A DNA stretch of 37,440 nt from a phage. Numbering within the stretch: the stretch's first letter is position 1; the number at the start of each line of letters is the position of its first letter. Positions 17,483-21,991 of the stretch are shown here, one piece after another. The stretch lies in NCBI GenBank assembly GCA_025289735.1, contig GCA_025289735.1_4764.1; one strand, 5' to 3'. The notes beneath the pieces are model-generated. The model saw only the letters and a list, made by a program, of their open reading frames with translations, did not search any database and was not told the DNA's origin. A program made the position numbers and the translations under genes.

Positions 17483-18947
17483 CCCCATTACCATTATACT
17501 TTCTTTGCTTAGTTATCCACACTCTAACCATCTCTACAGATTCACCGTCAGACGGATCAAGAGTTTTTCCTTTTTTCTTCATGCGATACTTAAATCCGTT
17601 AAATCTTGCATTCTCTTGCTCGTTAAAGTCGAACATCTTTTTAAATGATTTTCGCCCTTTACGCTCACCGCATTCTAGCGGAATCATTCGGTCTGTTATT
17701 ACATTGGCATTAGGCAGAAACGTTTTTAGATAATCTACCAACGCCCAATCAGGAACATATAGATTAACATTCTCCTTGCTCTCGTTGTCTCTCAGGTTAC
17801 AACGCAAACATAATTGAAATGCTGGTTCCAGATAATCAGACACATGACGCGCTTTCAAAAACTCATTTGTCGGGAGATCGCAACTATTAGCAAGACCTTT
17901 TAAAATATCAATCTCCCATCGTTGAGGGTTAAAGCTGAACATCACAGCAACATTTTTATGATGAATGTAAGAGTTAAGACCATAAGATCCGTAAGGTATC
18001 CGCTCACCAATACCATTTGTGCACGCTTCTCGGTCCCGATTCACGGTATAAATGAAGTCATCACCACATTCATTTTTAACCATATCAACAAGACGTTCAA
18101 AGGTATTGTTTGTTTCTGACTGGTGACGCGACCATCGTTCAGAGTCCGTCATAAGGATGATATTAACTCTATCTGTATTTTTATACTCTTTGAAATATAG
18201 TCTGGATTCTAGCGCACTCGGAACAAAATCGCAATTTGCATAGTATCGTAGATACTTCCCACTATATGTATCAAAGAGATTTGCACATGCTATTGTAACC
18301 TTTTTAAAGTCTCCCCACGTACCGTGTTTGTTATCGTTCAAGAAAACAATTTTCGACCCATTCTTCCGGTGTCCTTCGTTATGTTTTACCATAACGTTGA
18401 TTTTCTTCTCTAATAACGCCTCATAAAGCCCTCTAAGAGAAGAATCGATCATATCAGTACCATCCTTTGCACTTTCTATCTTTTCTTTGATAGCGGCCTT
18501 CTCAGAGTCTTTTAGAACTAAGTTCTGTAGGCATTCCGATTCGTCGGCGATTGGTTCGCAATGCTTCGTGATAAGTTCAAGATTAGACTTAAACGGATAC
18601 TCATTAAATTCAACCAGTTGAGGAACTTCATCAATGTAAAGGGCATATTCACCAAACATTTTTGAACGTTCCATATTAGATAACGCTGTATGTGTAATGA
18701 ATATCACATCAGCACCATCTTTAACTGATTGCATTATCGACGCTTGCACTGTCTTAAGGCTTCTTAGTCTTGTGCTATCAATCAAGACAGCACGACCGCC
18801 CATTCTTTTAAACTTATTGTAAGATTGTTCACTTAAAACACGAGATGGCGAAGCAATAACCGCTTTTTCTTTTGTCTCTAGGACGTGGGAAAGTATAGCA
18901 TCAGTTTTCCCCGCCGCTGGCAATGCGATTAATGTTTCAATCTTCAT
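17478..18947 (-). CDS. P-loop NTPase, possibly helicase-like (489 aa); function unknown
   Basis: Walker A LPAAGKTD at residues 9-16, Walker B-like LYIDEVP about 95 residues later; ATG 18947 overlaps stop of upstream 95-aa ORF. Not matched to any T4 protein I remember at this locus. Confidence 0.6.
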   Translation of the reverse strand: MKIETLIALPAAGKTDAILSHVLETKEKAVIASPSRVLSEQSYNKFKRMGGRAVLIDSTRLRSLKTVQASIMQSVKDGADVIFITHTALSNMERSKMFGEYALYIDEVPQLVEFNEYPFKSNLELITKHCEPIADESECLQNLVLKDSEKAAIKEKIESAKDGTDMIDSSLRGLYEALLEKKINVMVKHNEGHRKNGSKIVFLNDNKHGTWGDFKKVTIACANLFDTYSGKYLRYYANCDFVPSALESRLYFKEYKNTDRVNIILMTDSERWSRHQSETNNTFERLVDMVKNECGDDFIYTVNRDREACTNGIGERIPYGSYGLNSYIHHKNVAVMFSFNPQRWEIDILKGLANSCDLPTNEFLKARHVSDYLEPAFQLCLRCNLRDNESKENVNLYVPDWALVDYLKTFLPNANVITDRMIPLECGERKGRKSFKKMFDFNEQENARFNGFKYRMKKKGKTLDPSDGESVEMVRVWITKQRKYNGNGE

Positions 18948-19234
18948 TAGAAACCCTTACGTCGTGCTTTCTGGCATTTCTTGATCATTTTATCAGAAAT
19001 TTCGCGCTTCGGTGCAATCTCTTTCACACCGAAAGCACTAATGCCAAATTCAGAGAGAATATATTCAACTAACAATTCACGCACACGCGCTTTACCGATA
19101 TTCACGCCGTTATTTTTCAGATATGTCTGGCCTTCGACTTGCATCAGATCTAAATCTGCGTCGGTAATATTGATTTCTTCCATGCGCCCAAATCGAGAAT
19201 AAACCATGTGTGCGATTGCATTGTGTACTAACAT
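18947..19234 (-). CDS. hypothetical protein (95 aa), possible helix-turn-helix
   Basis: Track start 19252 is TTG; ATG 19234 has GAGGAA SD. Translationally coupled to the NTPase downstream. Confidence 0.5.
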   Translation of the reverse strand: MLVHNAIAHMVYSRFGRMEEINITDADLDLMQVEGQTYLKNNGVNIGKARVRELLVEYILSEFGISAFGVKEIAPKREISDKMIKKCQKARRKGF

Positions 19235-19255
19235 AATATATTCCTCACTCAAGAA

Positions 19256-19414
19256 TTACTTAATGATACTTACTTTACCAGATCCGTGACAATGAGCGCA
19301 ACACCCATCACCACGCAATCCTGTTCCGTTACAGTGTTTACACTTCTTCAACGGTAAAGCCATTATAGCAAATAAAGCAATAATGAATACCGAAACTAAA
19401 TTCTCAATAATCAT
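19256..19414 (-). CDS. small membrane-anchored zinc-ribbon protein (52 aa; two CxxCxGxG motifs)
   Basis: Not in ORF track (<60 aa). Hand translation MIIENLVSVFIIALFAIMALPLKKCKHCNGTGLRGDGCCAHCHGSGKVSIIK; GAGGGTGA SD 5 nt upstream of ATG 19414; fills an otherwise empty 150-nt gap. Confidence 0.5.
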   Translation of the reverse strand: MIIENLVSVFIIALFAIMALPLKKCKHCNGTGLRGDGCCAHCHGSGKVSIIK

Positions 19415-19673
19415 AAATCACCCTCAGTTCTTTATAGCCTCCAATGTGCTCGTTGTCAATGAATATCTGGGGGTATACAAACCGGAGGCTCTTTGAGTTC
19501 AGCCTCCCCGCCAGTTCTTCAATCATATCACGGTCGGGAATAATGTCAACCCCGACCTGCTTGAATACTGGTTTAAGTGTATACGGAATACCCAGGTCAT
19601 CCAGTAGCTTCATTGCACTAATACAACCATAACAATGATAAGCCTCTTTCGGTATACCGTATATCTCGATCAT
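19404..19673 (-). CDS. nrdH: glutaredoxin-like protein (NrdH/Grx family)
   Basis: 89 aa; CxxC (CYGC) near N-terminus and C-terminal YPQIFIDNEHIGGY, the glutaredoxin signature also in T4 grx-like proteins. Confidence 0.65.
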   Translation of the reverse strand: MIEIYGIPKEAYHCYGCISAMKLLDDLGIPYTLKPVFKQVGVDIIPDRDMIEELAGRLNSKSLRFVYPQIFIDNEHIGGYKELRVIYDY

Positions 19674-20146
19674 TTCTCAGCCTTTAATCTTTCTAGTTCT
19701 TCTTCCAGTTCCTTGATCCGTTGGTCACGTTCAAAGTCACGCTGTATCTTAGTGGCAAATACTCGCTTAAACTGATTGTAATCATCGATTTTAAACACTT
19801 CTTCTTCGCCATAGCGACGCACAGAAACTTCGTAGTTATTGAAGAATTGTTGCATCATTGCTTCGGATGATAGTTCTGCTGATACTACTTTAAAATATTG
19901 ATCTTCTGTAGGCGAAAACCAATTACAAGCATAAAGATAAACCTTTTCATTGTCTGGACACTGGTAAGCCTTACCATCGATTTCAATCACAGAAACATAT
20001 TCAGGTATAGTAGATGAATCAATAGCTAAGACTTTAAACGCACGGTCCCCGATAAACTCGGAGATCACACGATTCGCATCACTGGTTGCAAATGCTTTAC
20101 GCGCTTGTTCGTTTTTCCACTGATAGGTCATACCAACAACAAACAT
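19670..20146 (-). CDS. paralog family member P1 (~158 aa), repeat domain plus coiled-coil tail
   Basis: N-terminus MFVVGMTYQWKNEQARKAF matches 28190..28462 (MFKAGVAYVFKSEQARKDF) and the WExGKTYxWKD paralogs; ATG 20146 with GAGGT SD. Confidence 0.6.
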   Translation of the reverse strand: MFVVGMTYQWKNEQARKAFATSDANRVISEFIGDRAFKVLAIDSSTIPEYVSVIEIDGKAYQCPDNEKVYLYACNWFSPTEDQYFKVVSAELSSEAMMQQFFNNYEVSVRRYGEEEVFKIDDYNQFKRVFATKIQRDFERDQRIKELEEELERLKAEK

Positions 20147-20147
20147 A

Positions 20148-20972
20148 TTACCAACCTCGCTCTTTACCAATCAAAAATTCAACTTCACGACGTTTAATAT
20201 CTTCTTGAAGGTCTTTAATCTTCTGGCGATCTTGCATGATTTCATCCATCTTGTCAAGTGCCGCAATGAAATCATCGAAACGTTCAAAGGTTTTACCTTC
20301 ATTCGCTTCGCCAAATTTAACCATTGTCAGGCCGTAACGACTACTAAACAGACGTTTCAACTGTCCAACGATTTTAGAATCAGTGGTTATAACTTCCAAT
20401 TCTTCTATTTCACGAAAGAATTTTCTATCAGAATCAATAAACCAGCTAGTTCCTTTATGGTTGCTATCTTCGGTTGCACTCATTAGAGTATGGTCTTTAC
20501 CATCAATTTCAATTACATCAATTTGCCCACATGGACGAACATTTTTAACAGTAAAAGGTCTATAATTTATTGCTCGTGCAATAACATAATTAAGATTAGA
20601 TACGTTTTCAGCATAATGGCAGAAGTCGGTCATAGCATTCGCATCTTTCCAAGTATAAGTTTTACCAACTTCCCATTTCTGGGGAACTTCTTCAACTTCA
20701 CGAAAGAATTTTCGATCGAATGGACTAAAGAAATATGTTGCAGTCCAAATGTCTTTTCCTGTAGCAGTTTTCGCCGTATGATAAACACCGTCTAGCTCTA
20801 TTGCATCAATCCAACCGTTACCCTCGATCTCGATGATGGTAAATGGCTTGTCACCAATAGCTGCACTAATATCGCTGTTAAGTGGAGAAAGAACACCTTC
20901 TCCGTTAGTAATAAATTCAGTTTTAGCGTTTTCGTCTTTCCAGGTGTAAGTTTTACCAATTTCCCATTTCAT
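20148..20972 (-). CDS. paralog family member P2 (274 aa), two tandem repeat domains plus coiled-coil tail
   Basis: Internal duplication: MKWEIGKTYTWKDENAKTEF..DRKFFREVEE and QKWEVGKTYTWKDANAMTDF..DRKFFREIEE; ATG 20972 with AAGGGGAA SD. Confidence 0.65.
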   Translation of the reverse strand: MKWEIGKTYTWKDENAKTEFITNGEGVLSPLNSDISAAIGDKPFTIIEIEGNGWIDAIELDGVYHTAKTATGKDIWTATYFFSPFDRKFFREVEEVPQKWEVGKTYTWKDANAMTDFCHYAENVSNLNYVIARAINYRPFTVKNVRPCGQIDVIEIDGKDHTLMSATEDSNHKGTSWFIDSDRKFFREIEELEVITTDSKIVGQLKRLFSSRYGLTMVKFGEANEGKTFERFDDFIAALDKMDEIMQDRQKIKDLQEDIKRREVEFLIGKERGW

Positions 20973-20984
20973 AATATATTCCCC

Positions 20985-21449
20985 TTAACCGATTTTATCA
21001 AGTTCGTTTAATGCTTTCTCTGCTTCCTGTATAGCTTGCACCCTTTCCGGCATTTTGTCAAGAAAATCTTTCAACTCTTCAAAACTGGAGATATGACGCA
21101 AGGCGTTAGCACCGATAGCCGCATGTGATTTGCATTCAAAGCGGATTTTATAATTATCCATCGCCAACTTGAGAAGATCAATTAATTTAGATTCTTCTGG
21201 AATAATAATTTCTTCAAATCGGCTACGGTCATGATCCAGAAACCAACAAGATAGACCTACATCGGTTGAACTCATATAAGTTCCATCATGAAGATAAACA
21301 GACCGCACGTATCCTTTTTTCGCATCAACCGACGCAACTTTAAACGGCAATCGCAGATATTTCAAATAATCAACATCATACCATTTAAAAAATTGGTTTG
21401 CATCTTTTACATCTTTCCACGCATAGGTCTTACCAGCTTCCCATTTCAT
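20985..21449 (-). CDS. paralog family member P3 (~154 aa)
   Basis: MKWEAGKTYAWKD..RPF-like core..HDRSRFEEII; ATG 21449 has GAGAGA SD (track ATG 21464 has none). Confidence 0.6.
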   Translation of the reverse strand: MKWEAGKTYAWKDVKDANQFFKWYDVDYLKYLRLPFKVASVDAKKGYVRSVYLHDGTYMSSTDVGLSCWFLDHDRSRFEEIIIPEESKLIDLLKLAMDNYKIRFECKSHAAIGANALRHISSFEELKDFLDKMPERVQAIQEAEKALNELDKIG

Positions 21450-21453
21450 AATA

Positions 21454-21981
21454 TCATCTCTCATTTTTGATACGTGATTCTAATTGGATCATACGGTCGC
21501 GCGTTTGTTTGTATTCTCGGATAGCACCGATCCGGCTAGGCATACCACCCAGTACGCTCTTAATACCTTCTAGGGTAGTAATTTTGGCAATGCTATTATG
21601 TAACCCCATCTTATCGATCAACTGAATGTCGTAGGCTTCCATAAGCAGACCCAAGCGTTCTAAAGTTAGGTCTTCTTCTTTTTCTTCCGAATCTGGAATC
21701 TTAGGTTCAATAGTAACTTCGGTAAAGAAACGACGCTCACCCGACCAAAACCACACACCAGAACAGCCAATAGGGGATTCTTTTAACGTCATAGAGTCGA
21801 AATTACTACCAATAATAGTAATTTCTCTAACATCACCATCATCGTCAAGGTCTTCTACCCTAAACGGGCGACCAGCCAACAAGTCAACAATACATCTGTT
21901 AATAGACGACGAAAATTTAGTCAGTTCGGCTTTCGACGCTTCGCATTCAATCTTGTAAGTTTTACCAACTTCCCATTCCAT
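21454..21981 (-). CDS. paralog family member P4 (~175 aa)
   Basis: MEWEVGKTYKIE..GRPFRVEDL..GERRFFTEVT; ATG 21981 with GAGGTGA SD (track GTG 21990). Confidence 0.6.
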   Translation of the reverse strand: MEWEVGKTYKIECEASKAELTKFSSSINRCIVDLLAGRPFRVEDLDDDGDVREITIIGSNFDSMTLKESPIGCSGVWFWSGERRFFTEVTIEPKIPDSEEKEEDLTLERLGLLMEAYDIQLIDKMGLHNSIAKITTLEGIKSVLGGMPSRIGAIREYKQTRDRMIQLESRIKNER

Positions 21982-21991
21982 AATAATCACC

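Follow-up and report, generated by a model that had tools for sequence, protein, structure and literature searches.

Small gene between nrdH and 55.2

The window, as the whole stretch of phage DNA analyzed is called here, is 37,440 nucleotides (nt) long (GenBank assembly GCA_025289735.1, contig GCA_025289735.1_4764.1) and contains a small gene on the minus strand, in the gap between the glutaredoxin gene nrdH and the homologue of gene 55.2 (Table 1). The product is a microprotein of 52 amino acid residues (aa), MIIENLVSVFIIALFAIMALPLKKCKHCNGTGLRGDGCCAHCHGSGKVSIIK, as given from an ATG start by the listing of open reading frames (ORFs). An N-terminal hydrophobic segment is followed by two copies of the CxxCxGxG motif, at residues 25–32 and 39–46. 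It is very likely that this is a real, conserved gene encoding a transmembrane (TM) segment and one DnaJ-type zinc unit.

A preliminary description of this DNA, made from its letters alone, had placed in the gap a short gene whose product has a hydrophobic helix at the N-terminus and two DnaJ-type motifs; the gene was described as having a strong Shine–Dalgarno (SD) sequence and an ATG overlapping the 3' end of the glutaredoxin gene. These features were all confirmed. The ORF is present, its frame is kept in every relative examined, and its start overlaps the end of nrdH by 11 nt. The same description regarded the gene as unlisted. It is indeed absent from the first ORF track, because of a cutoff of 60 aa, but it is annotated in public records. 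In the RB49 reference record it is a 'hypothetical protein' located between nrdH and gp55.2, and some records label it 'putative membrane protein'; four annotated Krischvirus records leave it unannotated.

The 801 nt from 18900 to 19700 are 98.9–99.4% identical to the best-matching RB49-like records listed (Krischvirus, Straboviridae), and the identity is 95% or higher for each of the 59 matching records. On this identity, the window belongs to a Krischvirus, an RB49-like relative of T4.

Table 1. Features of the microprotein locus and of its neighborhood in the window
Feature	Coordinates	Strand	Remarks
52-aa microprotein coding sequence	19256..19414	minus	ATG start; orthologue of RB49p046 / NP_891617.1; PHROG 3931
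Predicted N-terminal transmembrane helix, residues ~2–21	19352..19411	minus	nearly invariant Glu at position 4
Predicted zinc knuckle pair, CKHCNGTG-x6-CAHCHGSG and K47, residues 25–47	19274..19342	minus	extra Cys38
Shine–Dalgarno sequence GAGGGTGA	19418..19425	minus	three nt upstream of the ATG, in the last nrdH codons
Candidate sigma-70-like promoter, TTGACA-16-TG-TATGAT	19522..19549	minus	inside nrdH, ~110 nt upstream of the microprotein start
nrdH glutaredoxin, 89 aa	19404..19673	minus	Pfam Glutaredoxin, 23.4 bits (cutoff 22.9); nrdH in RB49
gp55.2 homologue, 95 aa from the ATG at 19234	18947..19234	minus	Pfam DUF7570, E=1.4e-28; gp55.2 in RB49
DEAD-like helicase, 489 aa	17478..18947	minus	PHROG 2467; just downstream of 55.2
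Four tandem paralogous genes (166, 274, 159, and 178 aa)	19670..21990	minus	between nrdG and nrdH

Evidence for coding

In the six-frame translation of the 37-kb window, CxxCxGxG without an internal stop occurs just twice, and both copies are in the microprotein. Composition-preserving shuffles gave a mean of 0.11 motifs per window. This means that the feature is real and well beyond chance. The 159-nt ORF is ungapped in 59 of 59 cultured Krischvirus records, with identities of 96.9–100% for the nucleotide and 96–100% for the protein sequence. The allele of the metagenomic relative L004 is 82% identical to the window microprotein, and the ratio of the proportions of non-synonymous and synonymous differences (pN/pS) between the two is 0.21; by this measure, the gene is under purifying selection. 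In the finger half, one non-synonymous change (D36N) is found versus three synonymous ones, and in the helix half there are conservative hydrophobic changes and an in-frame insertion of three codons in L004. The alleles of the relatives L008 to L011 (43–50% identity) all retain the frame, the helix, and the motif pair. Thus, the doubt raised in the preliminary description, namely that the frame might be broken in related phages, was removed by these comparisons: the frame was intact and the four-cysteine pattern was invariant in the relatives examined. The ORF is almost certainly a real small gene that is translated. A scan of the whole window with Rfam found no RNA family, so that a structured RNA in the gap is unsupported and was rejected.

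The SD sequence is strong and conserved. Pairing of the 3' end of 16S rRNA with the 20 nt upstream of the start has a predicted energy of −10.2 kcal/mol, which is the strongest among seven neighboring starts and within the top 2% of random window positions. In each of the five relatives compared (43–87% identity), a GAGG or GGAG core precedes the ATG by 7 nt. In the window, the SD makes use of an AGG arginine codon within nrdH; AGG is the rarest arginine codon, accounting for 1.7% of arginine codons in the 24 long ORFs of the window. In L009, the core is built by other glutaredoxin codons, AAG-GAG versus CTG-AGG. The rare codon and the retention of the core through different codons indicate selection on the ribosome-binding site, not on nrdH, and this points to an SD maintained by selection.

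Two variants were observed among the close relatives, whose neighboring loci were obtained by exact-sequence contig look-ups. The Krischvirus allele P0002 (44 member sequences) carries a common natural variant, R34C, which places a sixth cysteine in the loop between the knuckles. In the short Logan contig L005 (1735–1983), a frameshift near codon 62 shortens the product of the nrdH homologue to 82 aa, and the overlap with the microprotein gene is lost. In L004, which is otherwise identical, nrdH is intact with 89 aa; the frameshift is therefore probably an assembly error.

Relatives of the microprotein

A word-indexed search of 5.8 billion proteins returned only near-identical clusters and the Felix O1 group. 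By tblastn against cultured phages, 59 Krischvirus and about 48 Felixounavirus records were found, the latter at 40–44% identity, and a more central query gave about 180 Felixounavirus records. ORF131 of Felix O1 (NP_945023.1, 58 aa, 'hypothetical membrane protein') is built like the microprotein. Both match the family PHROG 3931, the window protein with E=4.3e-10 over residues 7–48 and ORF131 with E=9.2e-34; for the relatives P0011, P0013, and P0129 the E-values are about 1e-9. ORF131 is homologous across the helix and the finger (42–44% identity by tblastn), and the conserved glutamate, GCC doublet, and GSGK ending are found in both proteins.

When 1.84 billion representatives were searched with a profile, 130 matches were obtained at E≤1e-3. 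About 12 of these are full-length relatives, all with a TM helix and one CxxCxGxG pair. The remaining ones match in the finger half only and include DnaJ and multi-repeat proteins, some with an N-terminal hydrophobic segment. Scans of viral contigs with single proteins (P0011, P0013, and P0018) resulted in partial finger matches (L006 and L007) or none. Matches in BFVD were RB49's own uncharacterised protein Q7Y3T0 and many small, uncharacterised DnaJ-like or anti-TRAP-like proteins from diverse phages. In the searchable literature on the locus tags, Krischvirus transcriptomes, and anti-TRAP-like phage proteins, no functional study was found, only an annotation table.

In an alignment of 13 sequences, Cys25, Cys28, Gly30, Gly32, Cys39, Cys42, Gly44, and Gly46 are invariant, and Glu4 and Gly37 are at least 90% conserved. 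Cys38, which adjoins the third ligand, is present in 10 of the 13 relatives. His27, His41, and His43 are not conserved.

Three Felixounavirus-type sequences of 63 aa (P0006, P0008, and P0009), each a singleton cluster, have a frameshift that falls in the first CxxC or immediately ahead of it. Translation continues in the +1 frame (…VVALCVVVLVKCLISNLTVN), and the zinc finger is lost. The frameshifts may be sequencing errors, or a few phages may have genuinely lost the finger. The sole non-enterobacterial match by tblastn was in Aeromonas phage phiARM81mr (L003, 1925–2725), where a 266-aa ORF containing CPHCNGTG…CPKCHGTG lies directly upstream of the holin gene. In lambdoid phages, Q genes sit just upstream of the holin region. 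From this position, the ORF may encode a Q-like antiterminator with only the zinc-finger motif in common with the microprotein.

Predicted zinc knuckle

The C-terminal 28 residues are predicted, from sequence and model, to be one DnaJ/anti-TRAP-type Zn(Cys)4 unit, that is, two knuckles forming one site. There are only five cysteines in the microprotein, and therefore only one zinc site is possible; one Zn2+ ion would be bound through four cysteines. The preliminary description had proposed a double zinc ribbon. With four invariant cysteines, one frequent fifth, and variable histidines, this part of the description should be corrected to a single center.

Searches of the PDB with the family profile support this assignment. 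The best match was the Cys-rich domain of DnaJ (1EXK, E=2.5e-12), whose two zinc centers were matched separately with independent E-values of 1e-5 and 5e-5. Further matches were DNAJA3 (2CTT, E=2.8e-7) and anti-TRAP (3LCZ, E=7.4e-6; 2BX9, E=7e-3), and the match with Q-lambda was weak (E about 1e-3). The score of the window protein for the Pfam family DnaJ_CXXCXGXG (PF00684) was 14.6 bits versus the gathering cutoff of 32.7. This family was matched by 12 of the 13 members, all below threshold, with a best E-value of 4.3e-4; such scores are expected, because the microprotein has half a domain. A complete DnaJ Cys-rich domain has four motifs and two centers, and the microprotein has two motifs and five cysteines. 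No J domain with a His-Pro-Asp (HPD) motif is found in its 52 residues.

The structure was modeled with AlphaFold2. An earlier model from six near-identical sequences was poor, with a predicted local distance difference test (pLDDT) score of 62, and the prediction was repeated with the 13 diverse sequences. The resulting model has a pLDDT of 76.5, and about 80 over the finger. It consists of a helix (residues 2–19) followed by two β-hairpins. In a Foldseek search against the PDB, anti-TRAP (3LD0 and 3LCZ) came first, with a root mean square deviation of 0.7–0.9 Å over 27–29 columns and a probability of 0.97–0.99. The next ranks were occupied by DNAJA2, 1EXK, BSD2, and Q-lambda. Since the Foldseek E-values of such short matches are weak, the fold search supports the sequence evidence and does not replace it.

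A redox active site of the CPYC/CPHC type in the second motif was also considered. This reading is uninformative and was rejected, because C-P-x-C is frequent in ordinary DnaJ fingers.

Transmembrane segment and probable topology

The most hydrophobic 19-residue stretch of the microprotein is at residues 2–20, with a mean Kyte–Doolittle hydropathy of 2.49. All 13 relatives have a 19-residue segment with a mean hydropathy of 1.8–3.0, and the differences among them are conservative substitutions and in-frame indels. This means that a hydrophobic segment of transmembrane length is conserved as such, and the product is predicted to be a single-pass inner-membrane protein.

The microprotein has no basic n-region and no lipobox in its sequence. 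The N-terminal flank is neutral or acidic in 12 of the 13 members, and the finger and tail together are net positive in 10 of the 13. As with the Pf3 coat protein, a short acidic N-tail would be translocated and a net-basic C-terminal part retained. By the positive-inside rule and by analogy with insertion of the Pf3 coat type, the microprotein seems to be oriented N-out/C-in, so that the zinc knuckle would face the cytoplasm.

Candidate promoter within nrdH

The sigma-70-like promoter inside nrdH matches the consensus at 11 of 12 positions and has in addition the TG of an extended −10 element. An equivalent site is located at the same place in the relatives. It is identical in L004 and L008, perfect in L009 (TTGACA-17-TATAAT), and TTGACT-16-TACAAT in L010. 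The position of the promoter is kept in five lineages despite a Grx protein identity of 59–66%. This conservation, while Grx diverges, suggests an internal early promoter that constrains the codons of nrdH. In the relative L013, an allele of the Felix type has its own promoter-like site and an SD directly upstream, and there is no upstream partner gene. From the conserved promoter-like sites within nrdH, the microprotein is probably expressed early in infection. Translation could occur by coupling to nrdH, or the microprotein gene could be read as the first complete ORF of the internal transcript.

Pairing with glutaredoxin and exchange of alleles

As far as their contigs extend, the Krischvirus-like loci all show the order Grx, microprotein, DUF7570 (55.2), together with the overlap. 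The overlap of start and stop is 8–11 nt with a glutaredoxin gene of 89–91 aa, down to a microprotein identity of 43–50%, and the gp55.2 homologue directly follows the microprotein gene in L004, L008, L009, and L011. The pairing with a thiol-redox protein, to which the preliminary description drew attention, thus stands for these phages, but it does not extend to the Felix O1-type homologues, which have no glutaredoxin beside them. There, the order is prs, nadV, a 111-aa gene overlapping the microprotein gene by 19 nt, the microprotein gene, and rIIA/rIIB. The 111-aa gene is PHROG 4262 and is unrelated to glutaredoxin (hhalign probability of 0.08%). The Felix-type neighbors ORF130, rIIA, and rIIB gave no significant match in the window by tblastn and blastp. 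The glutaredoxin pairing holds only for the Krischvirus-like phages.

The microprotein diverges faster than its neighbors and behaves as an exchangeable cassette. Between L008 and the window, Grx is 94%, the microprotein 50%, and 55.2 99% identical. The divergent block of DNA in L008 (43–73% identity) coincides with the microprotein ORF and is flanked by DNA of 97–100% identity. In the Felix group, the microprotein is the fastest-diverging gene at the locus (52% identity versus 58–84% for the neighbors), and a further comparison gave 39% for the microprotein versus 82% for the N-terminus of the adjacent rIIA. The independent replacement of the L008 allele argues against a co-adapted pair of Grx and microprotein; it is compatible with a variable external target, but is only suggestive, since other genes nearby contain mosaic blocks as well.

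Comparison with known zinc-finger proteins

Anti-TRAP (RtpA) of Bacillus (2BX9, 3LCZ, and 3LD0) is the best structural match to the model. It has 53 residues compared with 52 in the microprotein, and a single CxxCxGxG knuckle pair. According to the PDB descriptions, it is an antagonist of TRAP-RNA interactions and forms dodecameric particles; a small protein-binding inhibitor is also the mode of action considered here for the microprotein. Anti-TRAP is soluble and cytoplasmic and oligomerises through a C-terminal helix. In contrast, the microprotein has an N-terminal membrane anchor, and the finger is followed by a tail of 5–6 residues and no helix. The curated families for anti-TRAP are PF15777 and NF058604. 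The microprotein is below the NCBIfam RtpA cutoff (12.8 bits versus 65), and Pfam Anti-TRAP (PF15777) is matched by 2 of the 13 relatives. The enterobacterial hosts are not known to have TRAP.

The Cys-rich domain of DnaJ/Hsp40 (PF00684; 1EXK) has the same motif and hairpin geometry and is the strongest profile match. In DnaJ, however, four motifs and two zinc centers are part of a chaperone of about 375 aa with a J domain, whereas the microprotein has two motifs, one center, no J domain, and a TM helix. The Q antiterminator (Q-lambda, 7UBJ and 4MO1) has a similar CxxCxGxG-like knuckle. The similarity is limited to the finger, since Q is a soluble protein of 150–270 aa that binds DNA and RNA polymerase.

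The architecture is also reminiscent of FIP (At5g02160) of plant thylakoids, in which a TM anchor is combined with two CxxCxGxG repeats and which binds FtsH5, a membrane protease (PMC5915565). Its mature form consists of a membrane anchor and one C4 finger, with no J domain. FIP is unlike the microprotein in that it is eukaryotic, targeted by a transit peptide, and longer, and the likeness is one of architecture, not of direct sequence comparison. Sub-threshold matches to zf-AtTam37 were obtained for 4 of the 13 members. The resemblance to FIP is probably convergent or very distant.

Possible function of the microprotein

The microprotein might be a membrane-tethered, cytoplasm-facing module with a single zinc center that binds another protein and acts as an inhibitor or adaptor. 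Taken as a whole, this proposal is tentative, and its chances are put slightly below even. The helix would insert N-out/C-in, so that the zinc knuckle would lie on the cytoplasmic side of the inner membrane. The gene would be expressed early, from the sigma-70-type promoter inside nrdH and/or through translational coupling to nrdH. The knuckle would then bind a partner at the membrane and sequester, inhibit, or recruit it, in the manner of stand-alone DnaJ-type fingers such as anti-TRAP and FIP. The fixed scaffold, the fast-changing surface and helix, and the independent exchange of alleles suggest a variable partner. This might be a protein of the host, of a defence system, or of a competitor, and not the glutaredoxin encoded next to it.

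Several observations weigh against this proposal. The charge bias is weak or reversed in the Felix-type members P0012 and P0032, and the acidic linkers in some Felix-type members mean that the C-in topology is not secure family-wide. A PADLOC search with the Krischvirus and Felix microproteins gave no match. Pfam matches to Gad1 were below threshold (the window protein with E=0.16, and a single relative among the 13 with 0.0064), and identity with Gad1 was rejected, these matches being treated as noise. Mosaic blocks also occur in neighboring genes, namely in a paralogue of L008 (about 19886..20119) and in the L004 helicase; thus, cassette-like divergence is not unique to the microprotein and does not require an arms race. 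The three frameshifted Felix-type clusters may mean that the gene is dispensable in some backgrounds.

In a more specific form of the proposal, PHROG 3931 would consist of membrane-tethered, anti-TRAP-like inhibitors that are expressed early against a variable host or defence protein of the inner membrane, and whose alleles are swapped as cassettes of an arms race. This is speculative and, on balance, improbable. FtsH or a membrane-bound abortive-infection effector could serve as examples of the target.

Alternatively, the microprotein might be a redox partner of NrdH, as its client, as its membrane tether, or as a zinc/thiol redox switch. DnaJ-type fingers have thiol-disulfide activity, the overlap with the glutaredoxin gene is found in every Krischvirus-like relative, and Cys38 stands beside a zinc ligand in most members. 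Furthermore, the top Pfam hint of the window protein is GRXCR1-2_C (PF23733, E=0.0036), and GRXCR1/2 are glutaredoxins fused to a Cys-rich tail; in the phages, the two parts are encoded by separate genes. This last match amounts to 17.6 bits versus a cutoff of 26, covers 12 residues, and was obtained for one of the 13 members; as only the window protein matches PF23733 and the Felix-type genes have no Grx neighbor, the idea that such a fusion reveals a functional link was rejected. The partnership itself is unlikely. Felix O1-type homologues have an upstream gene unrelated to Grx, in L013 the gene follows a promoter-like site of its own and lacks an upstream partner, and in L008 the allele was replaced while Grx remained nearly the same.

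The topology could also be the opposite one, in which an uncleaved signal-anchor would export a disulfide-bonded tail to the periplasm for a role at the envelope, such as superinfection exclusion or lysis timing. In the Felix O1-type phages the gene is directly upstream of rIIA/rIIB, and in T4 these two genes are associated with phenotypes of the membrane and of lysis inhibition. In some members, the helix is followed by an acidic linker, and the distant matches P0086 and P0089 resemble signal-peptide or lipoprotein versions. This arrangement is nevertheless quite unlikely. A basic n-region and a lipobox are both missing, Glu4 is nearly invariant, and basic residues follow the helix in the window protein and in most relatives. 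In addition, CxxCxGxG motifs with invariant glycines are typical of zinc-binding DnaJ-type knuckles, for which there are cytoplasmic precedents.

Mimicry of a chaperone should also be considered. By imitating the zinc center of DnaJ, the microprotein would recruit or divert host DnaK or clients of DnaJ to the membrane, as may be compared with DjlA, a membrane-anchored J-protein that uses a different module. The strongest similarity of the family profile is indeed with the Cys-rich domain of E. coli DnaJ, of which both centers were matched. HPD, a crude indicator of a J domain, is present within the first 90 residues in 31 of the 137 collected proteins, mostly matches from the sensitive search, and the three inspected (P0029, P0044, and P0104) are J-domain proteins. 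The similarity is, however, limited to the generic CxxCxGxG scaffold. The surface residues between the ligands are not conserved within the family. This speaks against one constant target in the host, such as DnaK, and mimicry seems very improbable.

Finally, a chance ORF in the spacer between nrdH and 55.2, which might be suspected from its 52 codons and the missing annotation in some records, is effectively refuted by conservation of the frame, the Cys/Gly pattern, and the SD among relatives from two phage genera with identities as low as about 35%, together with a motif pair far above chance and no Rfam family in the window, and is extremely improbable.

Other features of the region

The wider window is a minus-strand region for replication and nucleotide metabolism of a T4-like phage. 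In RB49, the gene order is nrdG, four paralogous genes, nrdH, the microprotein ORF, 55.2, a DEAD-like helicase, and gp55. The matching region of the close record vB_ESM-pEJ01 contains RI, Dam, thioredoxin, the large and small subunits of ribonucleotide reductase, and a Sigma70_r2 protein, as well as the sliding clamp, clamp loader, DNA polymerase, RecA, and helicase. The T4 equivalents of the genes in this region are presumably nrdC, nrdD, nrdG, gp55, gp45, gp44/62, gp43, UvsX, and gp41. The nrdH product also has a sub-threshold match to NCBIfam GRX_bact (E=2.1e-7; 31.1 bits versus the cutoff of 90).

Among the four paralogues between nrdG and nrdH, the products of 274, 159, and 178 aa start with a W-E-x-G-K-T-Y-x-W-K-D-like motif. 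The 274-aa protein has this unit twice, and the 166-aa protein has a weaker, shifted version. Two of them, the 166- and 274-aa proteins, were scanned; they match PHROG 5347 and, distantly, PHROGs of 'goF mRNA metabolism modulator'.

The helicase gene of L004 contains a further mosaic boundary. Its 5' part (18740..18947 of the window) has a DNA identity of about 87–100%, which drops to about 43–77% from 18739 to about 18440, where the aligned region of L004 ends. For the whole helicase gene pN is 0.19 and pS is 0.69, and for the adjacent 55.2 and nrdH pN is 0.01.

Biological implications

Much of what is described here was already known: the gene is annotated, its family is catalogued as PHROG 3931, the finger is of a classical type, and plants provide precedents for a membrane-anchored DnaJ-like finger. 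The present analysis adds a fold assignment, one predicted zinc site in place of two, a pairing with Grx that is lineage-specific, and fast evolution in the manner of a cassette. As it stands, the finding does not point to a specific new mechanism, and the type of fold is familiar.

The gene is an example of how a cutoff of 60 aa for ORFs hides real conserved genes. 'Membrane-anchored DnaJ/anti-TRAP-type zinc-finger protein' would be a better annotation than 'hypothetical protein'. Two common coliphage groups with uses in phage therapy and biocontrol share the conserved microprotein. If its proposed role as a protein-binding module at the membrane is correct, it would represent a minimal phage design, in which one membrane helix and one zinc knuckle are enough to bind a protein at the host membrane, and it would provide a tractable example of 52 residues among the many uncharacterised small zinc-finger proteins of phages. 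Should the more specific form hold, in which PHROG 3931 consists of inhibitors of host or defence proteins, the enterobacterial myoviruses Krischvirus and Felixounavirus would possess a minimal factor of a new class, serving counter-defence or takeover of the host and made from half a DnaJ zinc-finger domain.

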